Positions 39,563 to 47,589 of a DNA stretch of 64,000 nt are shown in pieces. A program made the position numbers and the translations under genes. The notes beneath the pieces were generated by a model. The model saw only the letters and a program-made list of their open reading frames with translations. It was not told the DNA's origin and did no database searches. The DNA comes from Candidatus Latescibacterota bacterium. Its GTDB lineage: Bacteria > Latescibacterota > UBA2968 > UBA8231. Every line of letters begins with the position of its first letter. Position 1 is the stretch's first letter. The stretch spans positions 896,001 to 960,000 of the forward strand of contig CBDCXV010000010.1 of NCBI GenBank assembly GCA_965223905.1. Reading direction: 5' to 3'.

Positions 39563-39720
39563 CTACTCTCCCTGTGTGTCGATCAGAACCTTCATCAGCT
39601 CGCCGCCCGCCTCGATCTCCTCGAAGACGCCCTGGAGGTCGCCGAGCCCCCGGCGCGCCGAGATCAGGCGCTCGAGCGGCAGCTCGCCGGAGGCGACCAT
39701 CGCTATGGCGGCGTCGTAGT
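39563..39720 (-). pseudogene. 3' part of a Zn-dependent alcohol/sugar dehydrogenase split by the transposon
   Basis: YDAAIAMVASGELPLERLIS...MKVLID continues in frame from the 5' part at 46720-47589 once the element and one TSD copy are removed. Confidence 0.93.
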
Positions 39721-39819
39721 GGAACTTATAACCCCTACTACAATCTGCTGAACGCAGAGATTTTGTGCGGGTAGCGGTTATAACTTCCGGTCGTTCTGTC
39801 AATCCCTGTTGAGCTGTTC

Positions 39820-40026
39820 TTATTCTTCCGTATCTTCTTTGTCCTTGGAATTATCGGTTAGCTTGCGTAAGGCTATCGGACCGCCGACAGCTACAGCTAC
39901 GAAAGCGGTTATGCCTAATCCGATAAGTAGTCGATCCGGCTCGCTGGAATTCCAGCTGATGTCGAAACCTGGGACTTTGAAGGAAAAGCCTTCCTCCTTC
40001 TTGAAAGCGTTCGTGAAGTCGATCAT
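39820..40026 (-). CDS. Small single-TM hypothetical protein (68 aa)
   Basis: LLIGLGITAFVAVAVGGPIAL followed by a charged tail; start uncertain. Confidence 0.55.
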   Translation of the reverse strand: MIDFTNAFKKEEGFSFKVPGFDISWNSSEPDRLLIGLGITAFVAVAVGGPIALRKLTDNSKDKEDTEE

Positions 40027-40269
40027 GACGTGTTTCTCGTGGCGAAGGATGTAGGTAGTTCGATAGGGTGCGGTTCGGCATCCCATCGAATGAAATCTTC
40101 GAGTATACGGAAAGATTCGAGAATTCGCAAGGCAGGGATTGACAGCTAAAAAGAACAGGGACAATAATCTATCCCTGCTCTTTTAGTCAGCGTTTATTGC
40201 CAAAGTGATTGAGCACTATCTGGATCAGCTCAAGACTAACCTCCAGCAGAATCGCGACCCACTTCGGTA

Positions 40270-40566
40270 TCATTGCCCACCTCCTTTCTTGTGAGGGTCA
40301 GTTTCCTCGCCTTTCTCGGAGTGATCCCCGTTTTTTGTGAACCTGCCGTTCTCGTCGCGTTTTTGCGCTTCCTGTCGCCGGGTTTCGTTGGGATCGACGC
40401 CGTTTTGTATATCTTCCTGCGCTTCCCTGAAATCCCGCTTCACGACATTCAGCTTGGACCGCAACCTCTCGGTGAGAAATCTTTCCACCGCAAAGCGTAT
40501 CGCGTAGACCCCGGCTTCCTTGACAACAAGAACGCCTACGGTCATGAGTATTGGCTTCCACGACAT
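40270..40566 (-). CDS. Hypothetical protein, phage-like (hydrophobic N-terminus, RDENGRF motif)
   Basis: AAAGGGGG RBS before the ATG; 98 aa. Confidence 0.6.
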   Translation of the reverse strand: MSWKPILMTVGVLVVKEAGVYAIRFAVERFLTERLRSKLNVVKRDFREAQEDIQNGVDPNETRRQEAQKRDENGRFTKNGDHSEKGEETDPHKKGGGQ

Positions 40567-40701
40567 GATTTACCCCCTTTCATAGGAGTTTGAGAATGAA
40601 CAACAGACTACCAGACGATTTCAGAGACGAAATCGCCAAGAAACAGAGACAGGAGACTCAGAGACTACGGAAGGAGAACGCGGAGCTACGTAAGCAGGCA
40701 C

Positions 40702-40747
40702 AAAAAACCCCCGGCTCACAAGAAACCGGGGGCGGTTGTTTTTTTTT
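40702..40747. terminator. Bidirectional intrinsic terminator
   Basis: A-run, CCCCCGG-loop-CCGGGGG stem, T-run. Confidence 0.75.
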
Positions 40748-40766
40748 CTCTGGTGGGGAAGGTGAG

Positions 40767-40997
40767 TTAGGGATTGGCCCTGGCTTTGAGCTGGCTTCTC
40801 AAAGATTCGATTTGATACTCAAGGGCGTCGAGGTCGTTTCTCTTGAAATTGATCTTCTTGATGAGGTTATCACAGAGCTCGTCGATTACTGTAGGGCTCG
40901 GGGATTGATCGATTAAATGCTTTTGTATATCATCTCTAAGCTCTGATTTTATCTTTTCTACCTCTTCTTCGAAGGCATCCCAGTAATTTCTTGTCAC
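40767..40997 (-). CDS. Small coiled-coil hypothetical protein
   Basis: Purine-rich RBS, GTG start, followed by the terminator. Confidence 0.55.
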   Translation of the reverse strand: MTRNYWDAFEEEVEKIKSELRDDIQKHLIDQSPSPTVIDELCDNLIKKINFKRNDLDALEYQIESLRSQLKARANP

Positions 40998-41019
40998 CTT
41001 TGCTTTCCCTTTCTTTGGG

Positions 41020-41115
41020 TTATCCTGCTAAGATTGCGGTTAGTCCGACGATTCCACAAAAAATTATGAATACCCATAAAATGCAAGCCAGTATCCAGCC
41101 AAGGAACCGTAACAT
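41020..41115 (-). CDS. 31-aa hydrophobic peptide (not in the ORF track)
   Basis: MLRFLGWILACILWVFIIFCGIVGLTAILAG*; starts 2 nt after the upstream stop, with GGAG upstream. Confidence 0.6.
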   Translation of the reverse strand: MLRFLGWILACILWVFIIFCGIVGLTAILAG

Positions 41116-41117
41116 TG

Positions 41118-41714
41118 TTACCTGGCTCCGCTTTCAATCAGTAGCCTTATTATCTCATCATGAGTATCGGGACCACAATTTGAGCTTACCCAAGTGTAAG
41201 CTTGGCTGAATTCTAATAGCGAGAATTCTAATTTCCTTGAATCGCTTCCTGGGAAGTCGATCCGCAAGACTGCCGTATCGTTTGAACTTTTCAAGTGCTC
41301 TATTAGCTCTTTGAATTTTCGATTGTCTATGTTTTTTTTGTGGCGCTCCCATCTGTCCTTGTCTCTGAGTAGTTCAACTCTTGCAACTCCAATAGGGGAA
41401 ACAAACCCCTTGAAAGATTTTGTTTCCGACCCAGACGTTATTTTGAATACAACCGCCTCATCTGTTTCAGACATATATATCGGTCTTGTTGGATCTTTGC
41501 GGTTATAGGTGAACGACATCCACTGTCCAGGCCAGCTTTTATGATATTCGCACTGTATCCACAATTCAGGGCTTTTTTTGTTGGTCATTGTGACGGTTAA
41601 CCTGGTTTTTCCCCATGTATTCATCCTTAGATTCCATGATTCATTAGATGGCCCTTTAAATTCATACGCGGAAGATGCAACAGTAGACAGTAGTAGCAGA
41701 GACAGTAACAGCAT
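41118..41714 (-). CDS. Secreted hypothetical protein (198 aa)
   Basis: Signal-like MLLLSLLLLSTVASSA; AT-rich. Confidence 0.7.
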   Translation of the reverse strand: MLLLSLLLLSTVASSAYEFKGPSNESWNLRMNTWGKTRLTVTMTNKKSPELWIQCEYHKSWPGQWMSFTYNRKDPTRPIYMSETDEAVVFKITSGSETKSFKGFVSPIGVARVELLRDKDRWERHKKNIDNRKFKELIEHLKSSNDTAVLRIDFPGSDSRKLEFSLLEFSQAYTWVSSNCGPDTHDEIIRLLIESGAR

Positions 41715-41935
41715 AGCAGACTTTCCCCGCGTCGAAGAATGATAGAATTCGACTAACCCTGTAGCTCCCCAGGGTAGCCGGGTTCAGTCAACTTCCACGT
41801 AAGATTTCGGGAAAGTCTGCCTTATTTGCCACATTCGGGGGGAGATCAAACCCCCTGAACAGGAAAGTCTGGCTATTGTATTCGGGCAGGGACCCGACAC
41901 GAGAGGTTCCTACGTGAAGCTGACTAACGGGAAGA
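41715..41935 (-). promoter_or_regulatory. Structured leader resembling phage C4-type antisense control
   Basis: 41716-41727 complementary to 41809-41820 (and 41862-41871); 41786-41801 complementary to 41911-41925; TGTCGGG..GAATACAA motif. Confidence 0.55.
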
Positions 41936-41946
41936 ATACGAACTGC

Positions 41947-41974
41947 TTGACATTACCGCAAGGGATATTATCTT
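41947..41974 (+). promoter_or_regulatory. sigma70-type promoter, probably giving a leaderless mRNA
   Basis: TTGACA-16 nt-TATCTT; ATG 6 nt downstream with no SD. Confidence 0.6.
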
Positions 41975-41980
41975 ACCAAC

Positions 41981-42226
41981 ATGATTGATAGAATAGTCAG
42001 ACAGACACTGCGCAAACTGCGCGGCCAGGGCATAGACAAGGAAGCTGAAAAGCTGGCTGCCACCTTCTTTGAGCCCGTGAAAAGTAGTGCTAATATGTGT
42101 AGTAAGTGCGGTGCTCGTCCTGCGTTCAAGGGCAATGATTACTGCGTTGAATGCGCTTCTACACAGTCAACTATGTCGCCACAAGTGCATCCGTCAGAAG
42201 TAGAATCAAAGGCAACGCCGGATTAG
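41981..42226 (+). CDS. Small Zn-ribbon protein
   Basis: CSKC...YCVEC; own promoter; hairpin directly after the stop. Confidence 0.6.
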   Translation: MIDRIVRQTLRKLRGQGIDKEAEKLAATFFEPVKSSANMCSKCGARPAFKGNDYCVECASTQSTMSPQVHPSEVESKATPD

Positions 42227-42342
42227 CCGGGGAGAGAAAATATCCCGGCTGTATAAGAGCACGGCTGGAAACTGGGTGATTCCGAGAGTCAGTTCCCACT
42301 TGCGGGGGTTAGGAGGCCCCACCGTGCCATACAATACTACGC

Positions 42343-43332
42343 CTACCGTTCCCGTATCACAAGGTCACAGTATTTCAACCGCTTACCGATCATTCGGCGG
42401 AATAGGTGTTTCATCTGTTCGTCGGTATCCTCGTTACGGATGTTCGCCTTCCCAACAAACTCGTCAAGATATTTTTGAGCATGTTCTAACGACCACTTGT
42501 AATAGGTGCCGTGGTATGCTCGCTTGACGTGCGCCCAGAAATTTTCCATCCCGTTCGTATGTGACTTGCCGTTCACCCACTGCCTTGCAGTGTGGTTGAC
42601 GTATTCGTTTTTCCGTATCCAGTCAAACCCTATGTAGGCTGTTGCGCTATCGCTGTATAGGGTCCCCTGTCGTCGCATATGTAGCTTTGCGAACGCTTGC
42701 AGTGTTTCCGCATCGTCATTTTCGATGACTTTGACGACGAACTTGCCGGTTTTCCTGTCCTTCATGCCTACGACAAGTGATTTTCCCTGTCGCCAGTCAC
42801 CGCGAAGACGCTTTTTTGAGTGCTTGTTTCCTTCCAATCCGCCGAAATACGCCTCGTCAATCTCGGCTGCTTTGCTCTTGAGCTTATCTTGATCTTCCCA
42901 CCCCTTGCGGATTCGGTGCAGCATGAACCATGCCGTTTTCTGTGACACGTCGATGTCCCGGTGTAGTTTCATCGAGCTTATGCTCTTCAGGCTGGATAGG
43001 TGCAGATAGATCGCAATCACCCATTTTTGGAGCGGAATGTTCGTCCCTTCCATTACGGATTTTGTTCTCACGCTGAAGTATCGGTGACAACCGCCGCACC
43101 AATACGGCATAGGTCGCCGGTTTTTCCGCTTGTGAACGTCGTCCATACTGCCACAATGGGGGCAATACATTCCGATTTCGCCCCATCGCACTTGCTCGAA
43201 CCACTTTTCTGCTGCTTCTTCATCAGGGAATCGTCTGAACAGTTCCGGCAGGGAGATACCCTTACGGGTGCTCTTTCCCGGACCTTCCGGTTTACGATTA
43301 CCGACGTTCGACCACTTACCAAGAAACTTCAT
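42343..43332 (-). CDS. IS1595-family (ISXO2-like DDE) transposase, intact
   Basis: Zn ribbon CPHCGS..CGGC, SSMKLHR..VSQKTAWFMLHRIR, EIDEAYFGG, YSD, VNH, HTNGMENFW, YLDEF. Confidence 0.95.
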   Translation of the reverse strand: MKFLGKWSNVGNRKPEGPGKSTRKGISLPELFRRFPDEEAAEKWFEQVRWGEIGMYCPHCGSMDDVHKRKNRRPMPYWCGGCHRYFSVRTKSVMEGTNIPLQKWVIAIYLHLSSLKSISSMKLHRDIDVSQKTAWFMLHRIRKGWEDQDKLKSKAAEIDEAYFGGLEGNKHSKKRLRGDWRQGKSLVVGMKDRKTGKFVVKVIENDDAETLQAFAKLHMRRQGTLYSDSATAYIGFDWIRKNEYVNHTARQWVNGKSHTNGMENFWAHVKRAYHGTYYKWSLEHAQKYLDEFVGKANIRNEDTDEQMKHLFRRMIGKRLKYCDLVIRER

Positions 43333-43364
43333 TCTCAATTTCTCCTTATTAGGGATTGAGGGTG

Positions 43365-43408
43365 ATAGGGGAGAGGGTTTCGTTTGGATGCGGCCCTCTC
43401 CCCGCTAT
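43365..43408. promoter_or_regulatory. Strong hairpin upstream of the transposase (attenuator-like)
   Basis: GGGGAGAGGG...CCCTCTCCCC stem. Confidence 0.55.
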
Positions 43409-43439
43409 TCATTAGATATAGGTGCGGCACGAAACGGCG

Positions 43440-43655
43440 TCAAAACCCCTGTCCGTCTGACTTGTAGGCCAGGACAAGACCCCTTTCCTGGTGGTGAATG
43501 ATCGCTCCCATCAGACAGAGATACCTTTCGGGCATCGCTCGTTTCCCCTTCTCCCATAGGCATATCTCCGCCTCACTGACCCCAAGGGCGACCCCCAGCT
43601 CCCATTGCTTCATGCCGACAGCATCGCGGGCACACTTCAACTGCGATTGTTCCAT
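43440..43655 (-). CDS. XRE/Cro-like HTH regulator
   Basis: LKCARDAVGMKQWELGVALGVSEAEICLWEKGKR. Confidence 0.85.
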   Translation of the reverse strand: MEQSQLKCARDAVGMKQWELGVALGVSEAEICLWEKGKRAMPERYLCLMGAIIHHQERGLVLAYKSDGQGF

Positions 43656-43785
43656 TTGACACGTCCTTTCTGAATGACTATGATGCTGAAAAGGGGACAG
43701 GGAGGACCGGAATCGTCCCCCCTGTCCGAGCGGAATCCGTATTCACAAACCCGGTATTTGTGACAGAACAGGACCCGCTTTCTTT
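43656..43785 (+). ncRNA. Candidate antisense sRNA with a near-consensus promoter
   Basis: TTGACA(43656)-17-TATGAT(43679); downstream hairpins GGACAGGG..CCCTGTCC and AGCGG..TCACAAA..TTTGTGA..CCGCT, then TTCTTT. Confidence 0.55.
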
Positions 43786-43791
43786 CGGAGG

Positions 43792-44001
43792 CTACTTCCC
43801 ATCGCACCTAATCCAGCCTTCCGGCTTTTGAGATACGGTCGTGATTTCTGACAGCCTGAACACCAGCTCACGTATCGTCCCGCCGTGCTCCTGGCGGTGC
43901 TGCGTTGCTTCGGGCAAGGTCTCAAAACGGTGCACCTTGCTTTCTTTTACTACAATCCACCGACGTATTACCCAGCTCGGTAGGTTCACTTCATCGGGCA
44001 T
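43792..44001 (-). CDS. Small phage-like hypothetical protein
   Basis: AAGGAG RBS; 69 aa. Confidence 0.65.
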   Translation of the reverse strand: MPDEVNLPSWVIRRWIVVKESKVHRFETLPEATQHRQEHGGTIRELVFRLSEITTVSQKPEGWIRCDGK

Positions 44002-44147
44002 TAGACACTCCTTTCTATTGGGGTTATGTGGCGCAGTTCTTGTGCTGGCTATGGCTGCACAATTGGCGACAGCCCATAAAGATGAAGTGTCTTGGGCACT
44101 CGGTCTGGACCTACCGGTGAAAACATTTTAATTGCGGCTGATTAACA

Positions 44148-44360
44148 ATGGAAGAATTAATAGCAGGTGGTTCTTTTTTAATAGCTCTTATTGGATTGGT
44201 GTGGCAGATTAGATCCGGAAACAGAAAAATAATCGAGCAAATTAACACGAGTAATGTGATAATAGAGGTTCGCAATACGTCTACTGAGAAAAAGGGAGGC
44301 AATCTAAGTGCCAATATACAAGCAGAAACAGTTCATATCTATCAGGGGGGGGTATCCTAA
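44148..44360 (+). CDS. Small protein with an N-terminal TM helix
   Basis: LIAGGSFLIALIGLVWQI; AT-rich; abuts the next ORF. Confidence 0.6.
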   Translation: MEELIAGGSFLIALIGLVWQIRSGNRKIIEQINTSNVIIEVRNTSTEKKGGNLSANIQAETVHIYQGGVS

Positions 44361-44822
44361 ATGAGCCACTTATTTCACATAGTTTTAAATACAGGGTCAG
44401 TGTCTGTTTCTACCAAGTACGAAGATATAGAGGTAATCGGAAAGATTAATCCTTGTTCTCAAGTTCAGATAGAAAACCTACAATTCGAGGGGTCATCTTT
44501 TTTTAGCTGGTTCCAAGAGAAAAATGTATTGTCGTTTGATTTGAGATTGCGCGGCAAATGTGTTGGAAACTGTTGGTGTGTTCAGAAAAAAGGGACTCAT
44601 ATAAGGAGGGTATTAGATGACATCAAACAAGCTCATCCAGGATCCTATACAGATAAGTTAGTTGACTTGCCTGTCCCTTGGATTGCTCTATGGCTGATTC
44701 AGGAAAATTGGGATAAGGCCGAAGATGCGTTCCTGATTTCTCCTTATATGTTGCGAGAGGTGCGCGACTGGATTGACAACAGAAGACGTTCGGTTAGGGA
44801 GGAGGTAGTAACTCATGATTAG
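44361..44822 (+). CDS. Hypothetical protein (153 aa)
   Basis: GGGGG RBS; start immediately after the upstream TAA; AT-rich. Confidence 0.7.
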   Translation: MSHLFHIVLNTGSVSVSTKYEDIEVIGKINPCSQVQIENLQFEGSSFFSWFQEKNVLSFDLRLRGKCVGNCWCVQKKGTHIRRVLDDIKQAHPGSYTDKLVDLPVPWIALWLIQENWDKAEDAFLISPYMLREVRDWIDNRRRSVREEVVTHD

Positions 44823-44852
44823 TGCGGCTGATTAGCGAAACTCCCCCTTTTC

Positions 44853-44936
44853 TGGTATAATACTATAGAGGATCACGTTTAGAACGCGGTTCTCTGTTTT
44901 GCTACCTTCGATTTTTCTAACCGTCAGGTGTATAAT
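44853..44936 (+). promoter_or_regulatory. Two TATAAT -10 boxes (one extended TGn) upstream of the cargo gene pair
   Basis: TGGTATAAT 44853-44861; TATAAT 44931-44936. Confidence 0.55.
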
Positions 44937-45014
44937 CGTCCCTCTAATATTACGGATAAATGGTGTAGAGCGAACCTCAGTAGGCAGGTCCCCAGGTAGG
45001 ACTCGACTTCCCCT

Positions 45015-45554
45015 ATGAATGGCATAAGGTCTTATTTATCTGAGGTTTTTTGGAAAACACCTGGGAGGTTTATTTTTCTTGCAACTGCTGTCATTACAAT
45101 TGGCCAATGGTTTATTGACATTGGAGATACCTGGACGCTTGAAAGAAAGGCATTCTCATCGGCAATTTTATTCTTGGGAGTTCTGAGTTTTGGAACGGTT
45201 CGTGCATCCTATTCGATGCACACAAGAACGAATCAGATTTTGTCTGCACAAGAGACAGCTGCCTACTTGCCTGTAAAAACCATAATCTCTGGACCGTTTC
45301 GTGTTGCGGTTATTTTGGATACAAGTGATACAGTGTTTATTGGAGATGTATTAAGCATATTTAATACTATTGGAGATGCAGAGTTTCCTGTCTGCGTTAT
45401 ATCAATAGATGCTGTCACCGACAAAGGATTTCTGCAGGGGTCATTGGTTCCCCCACAAAGCGATGAATCCCTGTCTGAATTTTTAAACGAACCGGAAAGA
45501 TTAACAGCGAAACGCAGTATAACCATAAGAGATATAGAATGCCTCAACGCATAG
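45015..45554 (+). CDS. 2-TM membrane protein with a C-terminal beta-rich domain
   Basis: FIFLATAVITIGQWF and FSSAILFLGVLSFGTV; overlaps the next gene. Confidence 0.75.
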   Translation: MNGIRSYLSEVFWKTPGRFIFLATAVITIGQWFIDIGDTWTLERKAFSSAILFLGVLSFGTVRASYSMHTRTNQILSAQETAAYLPVKTIISGPFRVAVILDTSDTVFIGDVLSIFNTIGDAEFPVCVISIDAVTDKGFLQGSLVPPQSDESLSEFLNEPERLTAKRSITIRDIECLNA

Positions 45555-45967
45555 ATGTAAGACACGACGCTGTTGTTGCAAAGGCTTTAAATAATGAGCG
45601 TCGAGTTGTGCTCAATAAAGGATCAAATGATGGGATTCAAAAAGGAGATGATTTTATTGTATTCGGCTCTGGAAATGAAATTGTTGATCCAAGCACAGGG
45701 ATAAGTCTCGGCATTCTTGAAGAAATTAAGGGGAAGGGTAGGGTTATACATGTTCAAGAAAAAATGTGCACTATTGAAACTTATGAATATGATAATGAAA
45801 TTGTTTCTAACTCCCTTGGGGTATATTCATTTTTTGGCCCAAGAAAAGTTAGAGTTTATCGAGATTTTGAAGACATAGAAGTTGGCGACTTAGCTCGAAA
45901 AATTAGATATAAAACCTCCCCGAAGCAGTTGGCCACAGTGGCGGCTACTACGACTCAGGAAGATTGA
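45539..45967 (+). CDS. FlgT C-terminal-like domain protein
   Basis: VVLNKGSNDGIQKGDDFIVF..G.EIVDPSTG.SLG.LE..KG..RV..VQEK...IEVGD. Confidence 0.75.
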   Translation: MPQRIDVRHDAVVAKALNNERRVVLNKGSNDGIQKGDDFIVFGSGNEIVDPSTGISLGILEEIKGKGRVIHVQEKMCTIETYEYDNEIVSNSLGVYSFFGPRKVRVYRDFEDIEVGDLARKIRYKTSPKQLATVAATTTQED

Positions 45968-46001
45968 ATTGCCACGTATTAAACCTTCTTCAGTATCTCA
46001 A

Positions 46002-46048
46002 TTATGACGTATAGAATTCAGGCTCTTATGACGATAGAATTCAGGCTC
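46002..46048 (+). repeat. Tandem duplication 24/23 bp
   Basis: TTATGACG(T)ATAGAATTCAGGCTC x2. Confidence 0.9.
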
Positions 46049-46149
46049 TTTCTCTTTCGCGTAGGATCGTTTATGTCGGGTTCCTGGCTGAATACAACGG
46101 GTGGCTGGCGGTGGTGTTAGAACTAACGCTTGAACTGATACGAATTATA

Positions 46150-46630
46150 TTTAATCGGTGAAGGTAGGGGAGACGCCGCAATGGACGCCTCCCCGTTGGT
46201 GACCCCTTTCATTTCCTCGCTCTACGGGAGCGCCTAACCCGGAGGCAATGGTTGGGTCTGTTGCATGCAGGATGCTGCGGCTGGGATTCTGAGGCATTAA
46301 TTTCCAGAGAGAAGCGAGCTGCTTCCCTACTGGGATCTTGGCGTTTTTGTAGGAACGTGCACAAGTATCTTGTGCTGGGGTTGATGCCTCTTCCCCCGCA
46401 GTGTCTTGCATACAAAGGTCATACATACATATCTGCTTTGTGCGGGTATGTCAACTAACAACGTAGGCGAGCGATGAAGCGGCTTCAAACCGCGTTAGCC
46501 ACCTACAGCGGGCAACTGAGATACATCAACCGAGCGGGGATTTGCGGTCCCCGGATGCCTCATAGCCTGCCATAGCGGAAGTGTTCGGGGAAGGGCTAAA
46601 CCGGCGGACTCTGGACACTGAAACAGCTAC
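46150..46630 (+). ncRNA. Candidate large structured ncRNA at the transposon right end
   Basis: Nested long helices rich in G-U pairs on the + strand (46261-46280/46396-46415; 46291-46307/46375-46390; GTAGG/CCTAC; GCGGGC/GCCTGC; GTGTTCGGGG/CTCTGGACAC); no credible ORF. Confidence 0.6.
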
Positions 46631-46719
46631 CCTATCTGTGACTGGATTTCGTCAAAAATCCACCGTCGCGGGTGCAAAATCTCTGCGTTCAGCAGATTGT
46701 AGTAGGGGTTATAAGTTCC

Positions 46720-47589
46720 GTCGTAGTCCTCCGGCTCGTACACGCGCACCCCGCACAGCCTCAGCTCGCGCCAGAAGAAGCGGAACAGGTCGATTTTCGG
46801 GGGATCGGCAAAAATGGCGACGACGACGATGCGACCGCGCGTGCGCACCAACTCCGTCATCACCCGGGCCCCCTCCTGGGTGCCGGAGACCTCGAACAGC
46901 ACGTCGGCGCCACCCGGGCTGTGCTCCTCCACGGCCCCGGCGAGATCGCGGGCGCGCGGGTCCACCGTCTCGAAACCGAGATCGCGGGCGAACTGCACCC
47001 GGTACGGGTTGACCTCGGCCAGCAGCACCTCGGCCCCGGCGTGGCGGCAGACCAGGGCTACCAGGGTTCCGATCGGGCCGCCGCCGATGACGACCGCCCG
47101 CTCCCCCGGTTTCACCTCGCCGAGACGGACGTCGTGGCAGGCCACGGCCAGCGGCTCGATCAGGGCCGCCAGCTCCATCGAGATGCCCTCGGGCAGCCGG
47201 TGCAGGGTGTGCGCCGGCACCGTCCAGGAGGCCTGGAAGGCCCCGGGGCTGTCGATGCCTATGAAGTTGAGATTCTGGCAGATGTGCTCGTGGCCGCGGC
47301 GGCAGGCCGGGCAGCCATGGCACGGCTCCAGCGGGCGCACGACGACCCCGTCCCCCGCGGCCCAGCCGCCGACCCCGGGACCGGTCTCGGCGATCGTCCC
47401 GGACATCTCGTGACCGATCACCAGCGGCGTGCTCACGCGCTGATCCATGTGGCCCTGGAAGATGTGCAGGTCGGTCCCGCACACGCCGCACCAGGCGACG
47501 TCGACGCGGACCTGTCCGGCCCCCGGGGCCACCGGCTCACACGGCCCCACTCCGATCTTCTTGCCGCCCTCGTAGAACGCCGCTTTCAC
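46720..47589 (-). pseudogene. 5' part of a Zn-dependent alcohol/sugar dehydrogenase
   Basis: GVCGTD, GHE, CHGCPACRRG..HIC, GGGPIG; native frame ends at VYEPEDYD at the TSD. Confidence 0.93.

Follow-up and report, generated by a model that had tools for sequence, protein, structure and literature searches.

A mosaic non-coding tail at the right end of a 7-kb IS1595-family transporter insertion sequence in a Candidatus Latescibacterota genome

We analysed a 64,000-nt stretch of DNA from a Candidatus Latescibacterota bacterium (GenBank assembly GCA_965223905.1, contig CBDCXV010000010.1, forward-strand positions 896,001–960,000; hereafter the window, to which all coordinates refer unless another contig is named), and within it 707 nt at 45968–46674. 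These 707 nt form the right-hand, non-coding tail of a transporter insertion sequence (tIS) of the IS1595 family, an element 6,999 bp long. A preliminary description of this DNA, made from the sequence letters alone, had taken them for one large structured RNA. Our main result is a correction: what appeared to be a large multi-domain RNA is a mosaic non-coding tail, in which two features only merit follow-up, a 160-nt hairpin and a conserved block accompanied by plus-strand hairpins next to the right terminal repeat. The tIS concept covers insertion sequences (ISs) with passenger genes that are dispensable for transposition; ISNha5, with a transcription regulator as its passenger, is an example (PMC11891212).

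The island at 39721–46719 is a single transposition unit and a genuine insertion. Its ends are 45-bp inverted repeats (left, 39721–39765; right, 46675–46719) that are 100% complementary to each other, and an 8-bp target duplication, GTCGTAGT, read directly from the flanks, stands in direct orientation at 39713–39720 and, directly after the right repeat, at 46720–46727. Contigs from two runs, X5 and X6, carry the empty site, joining 39711 directly to 46719 and skipping 7007 bp. This length corresponds to the element together with a single copy of the duplication, indicating that the empty site is present in close relatives of the host. Together, the perfect repeats, the duplication and the empty-site contigs establish the island as one unit. 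G+C content is ~72% around the site and 64% genome-wide, and lies at 38–55% between ~39700 and 46720. On the right side, the frame of a host open reading frame (ORF) for a zinc-type alcohol dehydrogenase (46627–47589, minus strand) crosses the right repeat and now reaches its stop at 46627; the insertion cut ~50 last codons off this gene, and the original codons sit to the left of the element. The element is a recently inserted and well-delimited 7-kb tIS. Just inside the left repeat, the 13 outermost nucleotides of the repeat recur at 39775–39788, inverted and with one mismatch; the right end shows no counterpart.

Inside the terminal repeats lie, besides the transposase gene, at least nine ORFs, some of them to the left of that gene. 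The transposase (331 aa, 42343–43338, minus strand) has the Pfam domains of an IS1595-family DDE enzyme (PF12762, 102.3 bits against a cut-off of 27, E 3.4e-29) with an N-terminal zinc ribbon (PF12760, 28.6 bits against 25.4, E 1.4e-6), and this is the sole transposase type that the element encodes. Upstream of it is a 71-aa ORF with an Xre-like helix-turn-helix (43440–43655, minus strand; HTH_31, E 0.005, under the Pfam cut-off). A predicted sigma-70-like promoter, TTGACA-17-TATGAT, called from an 11/12 consensus match only, occupies 43656–43684 on the plus strand and faces the tail. Four cargo ORFs of 70, 153, 179 and 142 aa (44148–45967, plus strand) follow, the last of them ending where the tail begins; no family reached the curated Pfam cut-off in any of them, and PADLOC matched none. 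As the preliminary description had it, the tail lies in a real IS1595-family element that is free of TnpB, IscB and reverse transcriptase domains, and Pfam likewise found no IS110-type recombinase among the element's ORFs.

The zinc-ribbon DDE transposase, inverted repeats, 8-bp duplication and passenger genes, a helix-turn-helix gene among them, are those of an IS1595-family tIS. Siguier and colleagues reportedly described the family in 2009 as having terminal inverted repeats and an 8-bp target duplication. Compared with the usual IS1595 tIS, the present element differs in its unusually long and perfect 45-bp repeats, in the position of the transposase gene mid-element and in its 700-nt non-coding tail. 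The transposase, judged by its sequence, is isolated among the relatives found. Its best identities to 358 relatives from species-representative genomes are 49% and 46%, no metagenome contig match among those listed exceeds 40%, viral contigs reach at most 37%, and the 13 matches elsewhere in its own genome are 27–57% identical, which sets it apart from other IS1595 relatives. The element is a new and isolated IS1595 tIS with a mosaic non-coding tail.

The tail contains no credible ORF, in agreement with the preliminary description: no frame in it has a family or a homologue. We compared its folding energy with that of dinucleotide shuffles, using 20 shuffles for the whole 707 nt and 100 for each sub-region. 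The whole tail folded better than its shuffles on both strands (plus, −267.1 kcal/mol, z −4.13; minus, −232.2 kcal/mol, z −3.72; 0/20 shuffles as good on either strand), which bears out the earlier expectation of excess stability but not the idea that this stability is spread across 700 nt. By sub-region, z was +0.62 (plus) and −0.38 (minus) for 45968–46150, +0.11 and −2.36 for 46150–46260, −5.56 and −7.39 for 46255–46420, and −2.70 (1/100 shuffles as good) and −0.48 for 46455–46680. Nearly all of the 700-nt fold signal thus comes from one branched hairpin of 160 nt at 46258–46418, in which a long outer stem surrounds three small hairpins. Its stability is significant on either strand and remains so when DNA parameters are used (z −3.68 and −4.27, window 46271–46420), and the hairpin is single-copy in its own genome. 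To its left, the spacer at 45968–46150, which has no significant fold, contains two exact 17-nt direct repeats (46011–46027 and 46034–46050) and a 43-nt motif (46056–46097). A GC-rich hairpin that is better on the minus strand lies at 46164–46198.

The helices named in the preliminary description proved to be accurately drawn. Checked base by base, the 20-bp helix between 46261–46280 and 46396–46415 has, on the plus strand, exactly three G-U pairs and one C-A mismatch, and the nested helix, the hairpin GCACAAG-TAT-CTTGTGC and the three domains that follow all occur in the minimum-energy folds. The proposed alternative pairing of TGAGGCAT (46290–46297) with ATGCCTCA (46555–46562) also exists, but as an 8-mer complement it is expected by chance, since we estimate that 700 nt hold a few such complements per region. 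A plus-strand excess of G-U pairs, read earlier as a mark of RNA-level selection, is real (G-U against C-A/A-C, 10 vs 2 in the big hairpin and 11 vs 1 in the right end), but both minimum-energy folding and the G+T-rich plus strand inflate it.

The right end shows strand asymmetry. Two G-U-rich hairpins there, at 46580–46618 and, abutting the right repeat, at 46633–46674, are stable as plus-strand RNA only. For the window 46578–46620, z was −3.51 on the plus strand, +1.00 on the minus strand and −0.22 as DNA; for 46630–46676 the corresponding values were −3.70, −0.90 and −1.95, the borders of both windows having been picked after folding. These figures favour plus-strand RNA for the last 100 nt of the tail, although the plus strand is also rich in G and T. 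The earlier suggestion of a plus-strand RNA signal therefore holds next to the right repeat, with RNA parameters only, and fails for the big hairpin, whose fold is significant on either strand and with DNA parameters too. Neighbouring these hairpins, and overlapping the first of them, the block at 46463–46596 is no more stable than its shuffles (z −0.04 on the plus strand, −0.46 on the minus strand).

The tail is a mosaic of pieces with separate histories, comprising at least three modules. Three observations show this. The first comes from X3 and X4, two sponge metatranscriptome runs belonging to a single study, whose contigs keep the block and skip the big hairpin. The contigs (277 and 248 nt) match 46463–46596, in plus-strand coordinates, at ~95%, with six differences and one gap. 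In them the block is fused to 43754, leaving out 2708 bp with the cargo ORFs and the big hairpin; the flanking sides of the joint are 28 and 18 nt only, and the contigs show neither strand nor ends. At 95% or more, the matches were this block and, in X3, 42290–42331, with no other piece identifiable. A 171-nt contig from X5 matches 46456–46621 with 23 differences and 10 gaps. Element parts left uncovered in runs X3–X6 do not count as evidence of absence. Elsewhere in the tail, the 43-nt motif recurs in inverted orientation at 41876–41918 (minus strand) and on a second contig of the same genome (C2:417310–417357), where it adjoins a helix-turn-helix paralogue, and other parts of the element are 71–86% identical at the DNA level to islands of contigs C2 and C11. 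We also considered the 43-nt motif pair as the ends of a nested inner IS and rejected it: the borders carry no duplication, and the C2 homology runs past the motif. A contig from X6 joins 46009 back to 44831, a join that suggests shuffling of two-gene cargo modules between relatives.

Searches for homologues of the tail returned little beyond the element itself. No homologue of 46150–46674 was found in its own genome, in 301 other genomes searched as DNA, in 160 loci of transposase relatives, or in plasmids and phages. The own-genome search returned the region itself and the left repeat, the latter matched by the 45-bp repeat in the query, and blocks of 46150–46680 have no second copy there. 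A DNA search of 60 relatives gave 0 matches, as did the two genomes with the closest transposases, the orders of which gave 0/55 and 0/78; a phylum set of 168 genomes, our own included, gave three matches of 25–34 nt (E 1.7e-4 to 0.0088), which we take as chance. Viral contigs gave 0 matches to exact patterns taken from the repeat and the conserved block. The loci of transposase relatives were the best 80 of 358 from genomes, the best 80 of at least 580 from metagenomes, and 15 viral contigs. In the 160 genome and metagenome loci neither blastn nor nhmmer found the tail, and a single-sequence covariance model (R2) found no homologue, its only other match having E 0.51; another covariance model (R1) was applied to the own genome only. 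Among distant relatives, 20 entries, three of them identical, amount to 17 distinct complete elements of 2.1–4.3 kb with 8-bp duplications, which sit at unrelated insertion sites and are without the tail sequence.

No known RNA or gene family accounts for the tail. Rfam gave 0 matches at gathering thresholds across the whole 64-kb window and, at E ≤10 over 45500–47000, a match to mir-877 only (16 bits against a gathering score of 47, E 8.4); the families that the preliminary description had named for checking (HEARO, ROOL, GOLLD, ribozymes and introns) are not among the matches, and neither are OLE or riboswitches. ARAGORN found no tRNA or tmRNA genes.

Building on the observed element borders, modular make-up, fold statistics and strand asymmetry, we tentatively favour, short of calling it probable, a reading in which the tail is the untranslated end of a rightward transcript with RNA hairpins. 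A cargo transcript would start at the sigma-70-like site (43656–43684), read rightward through the cargo ORFs and end in the tail as its untranslated 3′ end. The modules of the tail are a spacer in which motifs are repeated and no fold is significant (module 1, 45968–46254), the 160-nt branched hairpin, which belongs to the cargo segment (module 2, 46258–46418), and ~210 nt of subterminal sequence beside the right repeat (module 3, 46463–46674). In the RNA, the two G-U-rich hairpins together with the big one would serve as 3′-end structures that make the transcript more stable or hinder read-out into the host DNA. Rightward transcription is plausible because the promoter-like site faces the tail, no terminator-like site lies in 45823–46800, and paralogous loci carry ORFs on the same side: in 4/4 of them ORFs are present on the divergent side of the helix-turn-helix gene. 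The paralogous locus on C2 also retains the −35 hexamer beside the helix-turn-helix start. When the element is scanned from end to end in sliding 160-nt windows, hairpins comparable to the big one appear between other gene modules (41715–41864, z −6.39 and −6.02; 40040–40189, minus strand, z −5.35), which fits a general role at gene-module borders.

Several results weigh against this reading. Transcription of the tail, its direction and the role of the hairpins are what we infer, and the only hint of expression comes from the RNA-library contigs, which derive from a relative ~5% different and from libraries of a kind that can carry DNA; no transcript of the element itself was seen among them. 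The promoter is a consensus match only, and the transcript predicted from it would run antisense to a 69-aa ORF (43792–44001). No tail hairpin precedes a T-run. Because the big hairpin folds at least as well on the minus strand, it gives no direction of transcription. The conserved block 46463–46596 has no excess stability, so that structure does not explain its conservation. Finally, in the sliding scan with fixed 160-nt windows the right end is unremarkable on the plus strand (46441–46600, z +0.54; 46521–46680, z −1.51), showing that the z-scores of the two right-end hairpins depend on borders picked after folding.

The same both-strand stability that deprives the big hairpin of a direction is what one would see if it were a DNA-level feature or relic, a palindromic scar of insertion or recombination at a module border, with the rest of the tail decayed spacer. 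Such an origin is possible but, in our judgement, doubtful. It would suit the significance of the hairpin with DNA parameters, the module borders that other runs place at 46009 and 46463, the further long palindromic hairpins between modules of the same element, and the mosaic nature of an element whose pieces are common to other genome islands. Yet instead of a simple inverted repeat the hairpin has a branched form, with three inner hairpins independent of one another, and it does not behave as a miniature inverted-repeat element, being single-copy and without a clean duplication at 46258 or 46418. The two hairpins beside the right repeat, moreover, are weak as DNA, and the two element ends are alike in the 45-bp repeat only, so that transposase-binding repeats in the tail, which we considered, are rejected. 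A discrete small non-coding RNA, or several, from ~46456–46674 on the plus strand, regulating the element, for example through antisense pairing with the helix-turn-helix/transposase transcript or through its titration, is unlikely. In its favour, in each of the two RNA runs 46463–46596 is one of only two pieces at 95–99% identity, the other 7/9 falling below 95%; in the X3 and X4 contigs the block directly follows 43727–43754, just downstream of the promoter-like site; a more distant copy is present in X5; and the hairpins are specific to the plus strand and to RNA parameters. These points are offset by the z of −0.04 for the whole block, by a joint resting on 28 and 18 nt in two runs of a single study, by contigs that carry no information on strand or ends, and by a search that found no local promoter. 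The block also lies 2.8 kb from the start of the transposase operon, with no overlap with the transposase message here. A bolder form of this idea, in which 46456–46674 (plus strand, ~165–220 nt), a sequence kept at 80–95% in several sponge-associated datasets, is a new transposon-borne RNA made from a helix-turn-helix-controlled promoter and tuning transposition in an IS1595 clade, strikes us as decidedly improbable; if true, it would be the first RNA component described for the IS1595 DDE family. Should the subterminal block prove to be a real RNA, IS1595 would be added to the small number of DDE insertion sequences that have an RNA regulator, and the block could be used to track the element's clade in sponge-associated microbes.

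Coding offers little help in explaining the tail. Small proteins or a decayed gene, with a 33-codon ORF at 46474–46575 (plus strand) in the conserved block as candidate, would account for a block that begins 11 nt ahead of the ATG and stops 21 nt past the stop codon, and open frames of 96–99 codons run over the hairpin on both strands. Against this, Pfam matched none of three frames across the big hairpin, the 99-aa and 43-aa frames have no homologue among 5.8 billion proteins, and the matching contigs are gapped, by 1 nt in X3 and X4 and by 10 gaps in X5; we regard a coding origin as very improbable. We give still less credence to the reading with which the preliminary description began, a single large structured RNA serving as transposase cofactor, guide or ribozyme. 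Its appeal lies in the z of −4.13 for the whole region, which no known family explains, and in a location at the element end like that of IS110 bridge RNAs (PMC11208160). One RNA of this size is contradicted, however, by a 5′ part of 290 nt that is unstructured and by relatives that keep only the 134-nt block 46463–46596, without the big hairpin, while the 17 distant relative elements are without the tail altogether. A guide role fares no better. The tail and the terminal repeat have no 8-mer in common on either strand and none that is complementary, and comparison with a 60-nt model of the empty target gave four complementary 8-mers, two of them overlapping as one 9-mer, where ~1.3 8-mers were expected. 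The 9-mer, complementary to the target flank, lies in the linker at 46569–46577, and only one insertion is available for the comparison. Complementarity to the target or to the element ends thus appears to be nothing beyond chance. We know of no RNA requirement for IS1595-family DDE transposases.

The tail can be compared with known RNA-bearing elements. A full-text literature search turned up no RNA described for the IS1595 family, as far as titles and the opening lines of abstracts tell. Element-encoded guide RNAs are exemplified by the seekRNA of IS1111 and the omega RNA of IS200/IS605. The tail resembles these and the bridge RNA of IS110 as a non-coding segment with structure at one IS end. 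It differs from them in every component looked for: the element has no IS110-type recombinase and no TnpB or IscB domain in any ORF, and the tail has no loops complementary to the target or donor ends and no Rfam match. Unlike guide-RNA elements, the present one also makes an 8-bp duplication, typical of DDE cut-and-paste. The RNA-OUT of IS10 is an antisense RNA that overlaps the 5′ end of the transposase message. Its likeness to the present case is a possible short, stable, outward-reading stem-loop RNA near a terminal repeat; unlike RNA-OUT, the tail (45968–46674) lies 2.8–3.0 kb from the start of the transposase operon, whose helix-turn-helix and transposase genes start at 43655 and 43338, and there is no overlap. 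A third comparison is with 3′ stem-loops such as REP-like elements and intrinsic terminators, which the tail resembles in having stable hairpins after the last co-directional gene, with others between modules. In contrast to these, no T-run follows any tail hairpin, no terminator-like site lies in 45968–46800, and repeated genome copies are lacking; the 160-nt branched form is also far larger than usual bacterial 3′ stem-loops. Two terminator-like sites lie before the tail, at 45292–45311 and 45810–45822.

The remaining observations concern the other genes of the element and its counterparts in the genome. The helix-turn-helix gene belongs to a family of five in this one genome; its four paralogues (C11:1203610–1203807, C11:1162261–1162467, C11:1201708–1201857 and C2:417034–417246) show 75–86% amino acid identity. 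Between the promoter and the helix-turn-helix gene, both in the window and on C2, is a palindrome that may be an operator. Further IS1595-type transposase genes, 44–57% identical to that of the element, lie in low-G+C islands at C11:1184500–1210000 and C2:411000–422000. The conserved 69-aa ORF (43792–44001, minus strand) has two paralogues on C11 (1195506–1195650 and 1196247–1196418, inverted copies) at 76–80% DNA identity. An apparent long inverted repeat on C11 resembling 43858–44030 was rejected, as it consists of these inverted copies of the 69-aa gene.

Among the cargo genes, the 70-aa ORF (44148–44360) scores 19.5 bits against a holin-like toxin family of Pfam, short of the cut-off of 23.3, and this ORF and that at 45015–45554 may, judged from sequence, encode paired membrane proteins. 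The word TGCGGCTGATTA occurs at 44124–44144 and 44814–44834, directly past the stop codons of two ORFs. The 105-nt hairpin 41716–41820, which has a 12-bp closing stem, stands between the cargo on the left and the transposase side. It is partly homologous to C2:417358–417456; comparison led us to reject it as a homologue of the hairpin at 46258–46418. Further left, 40150–40189 (minus strand) resembles a terminator for a 98-aa ORF at 40270–40566, with a perfect hairpin of 15 bp between A- and U-runs.

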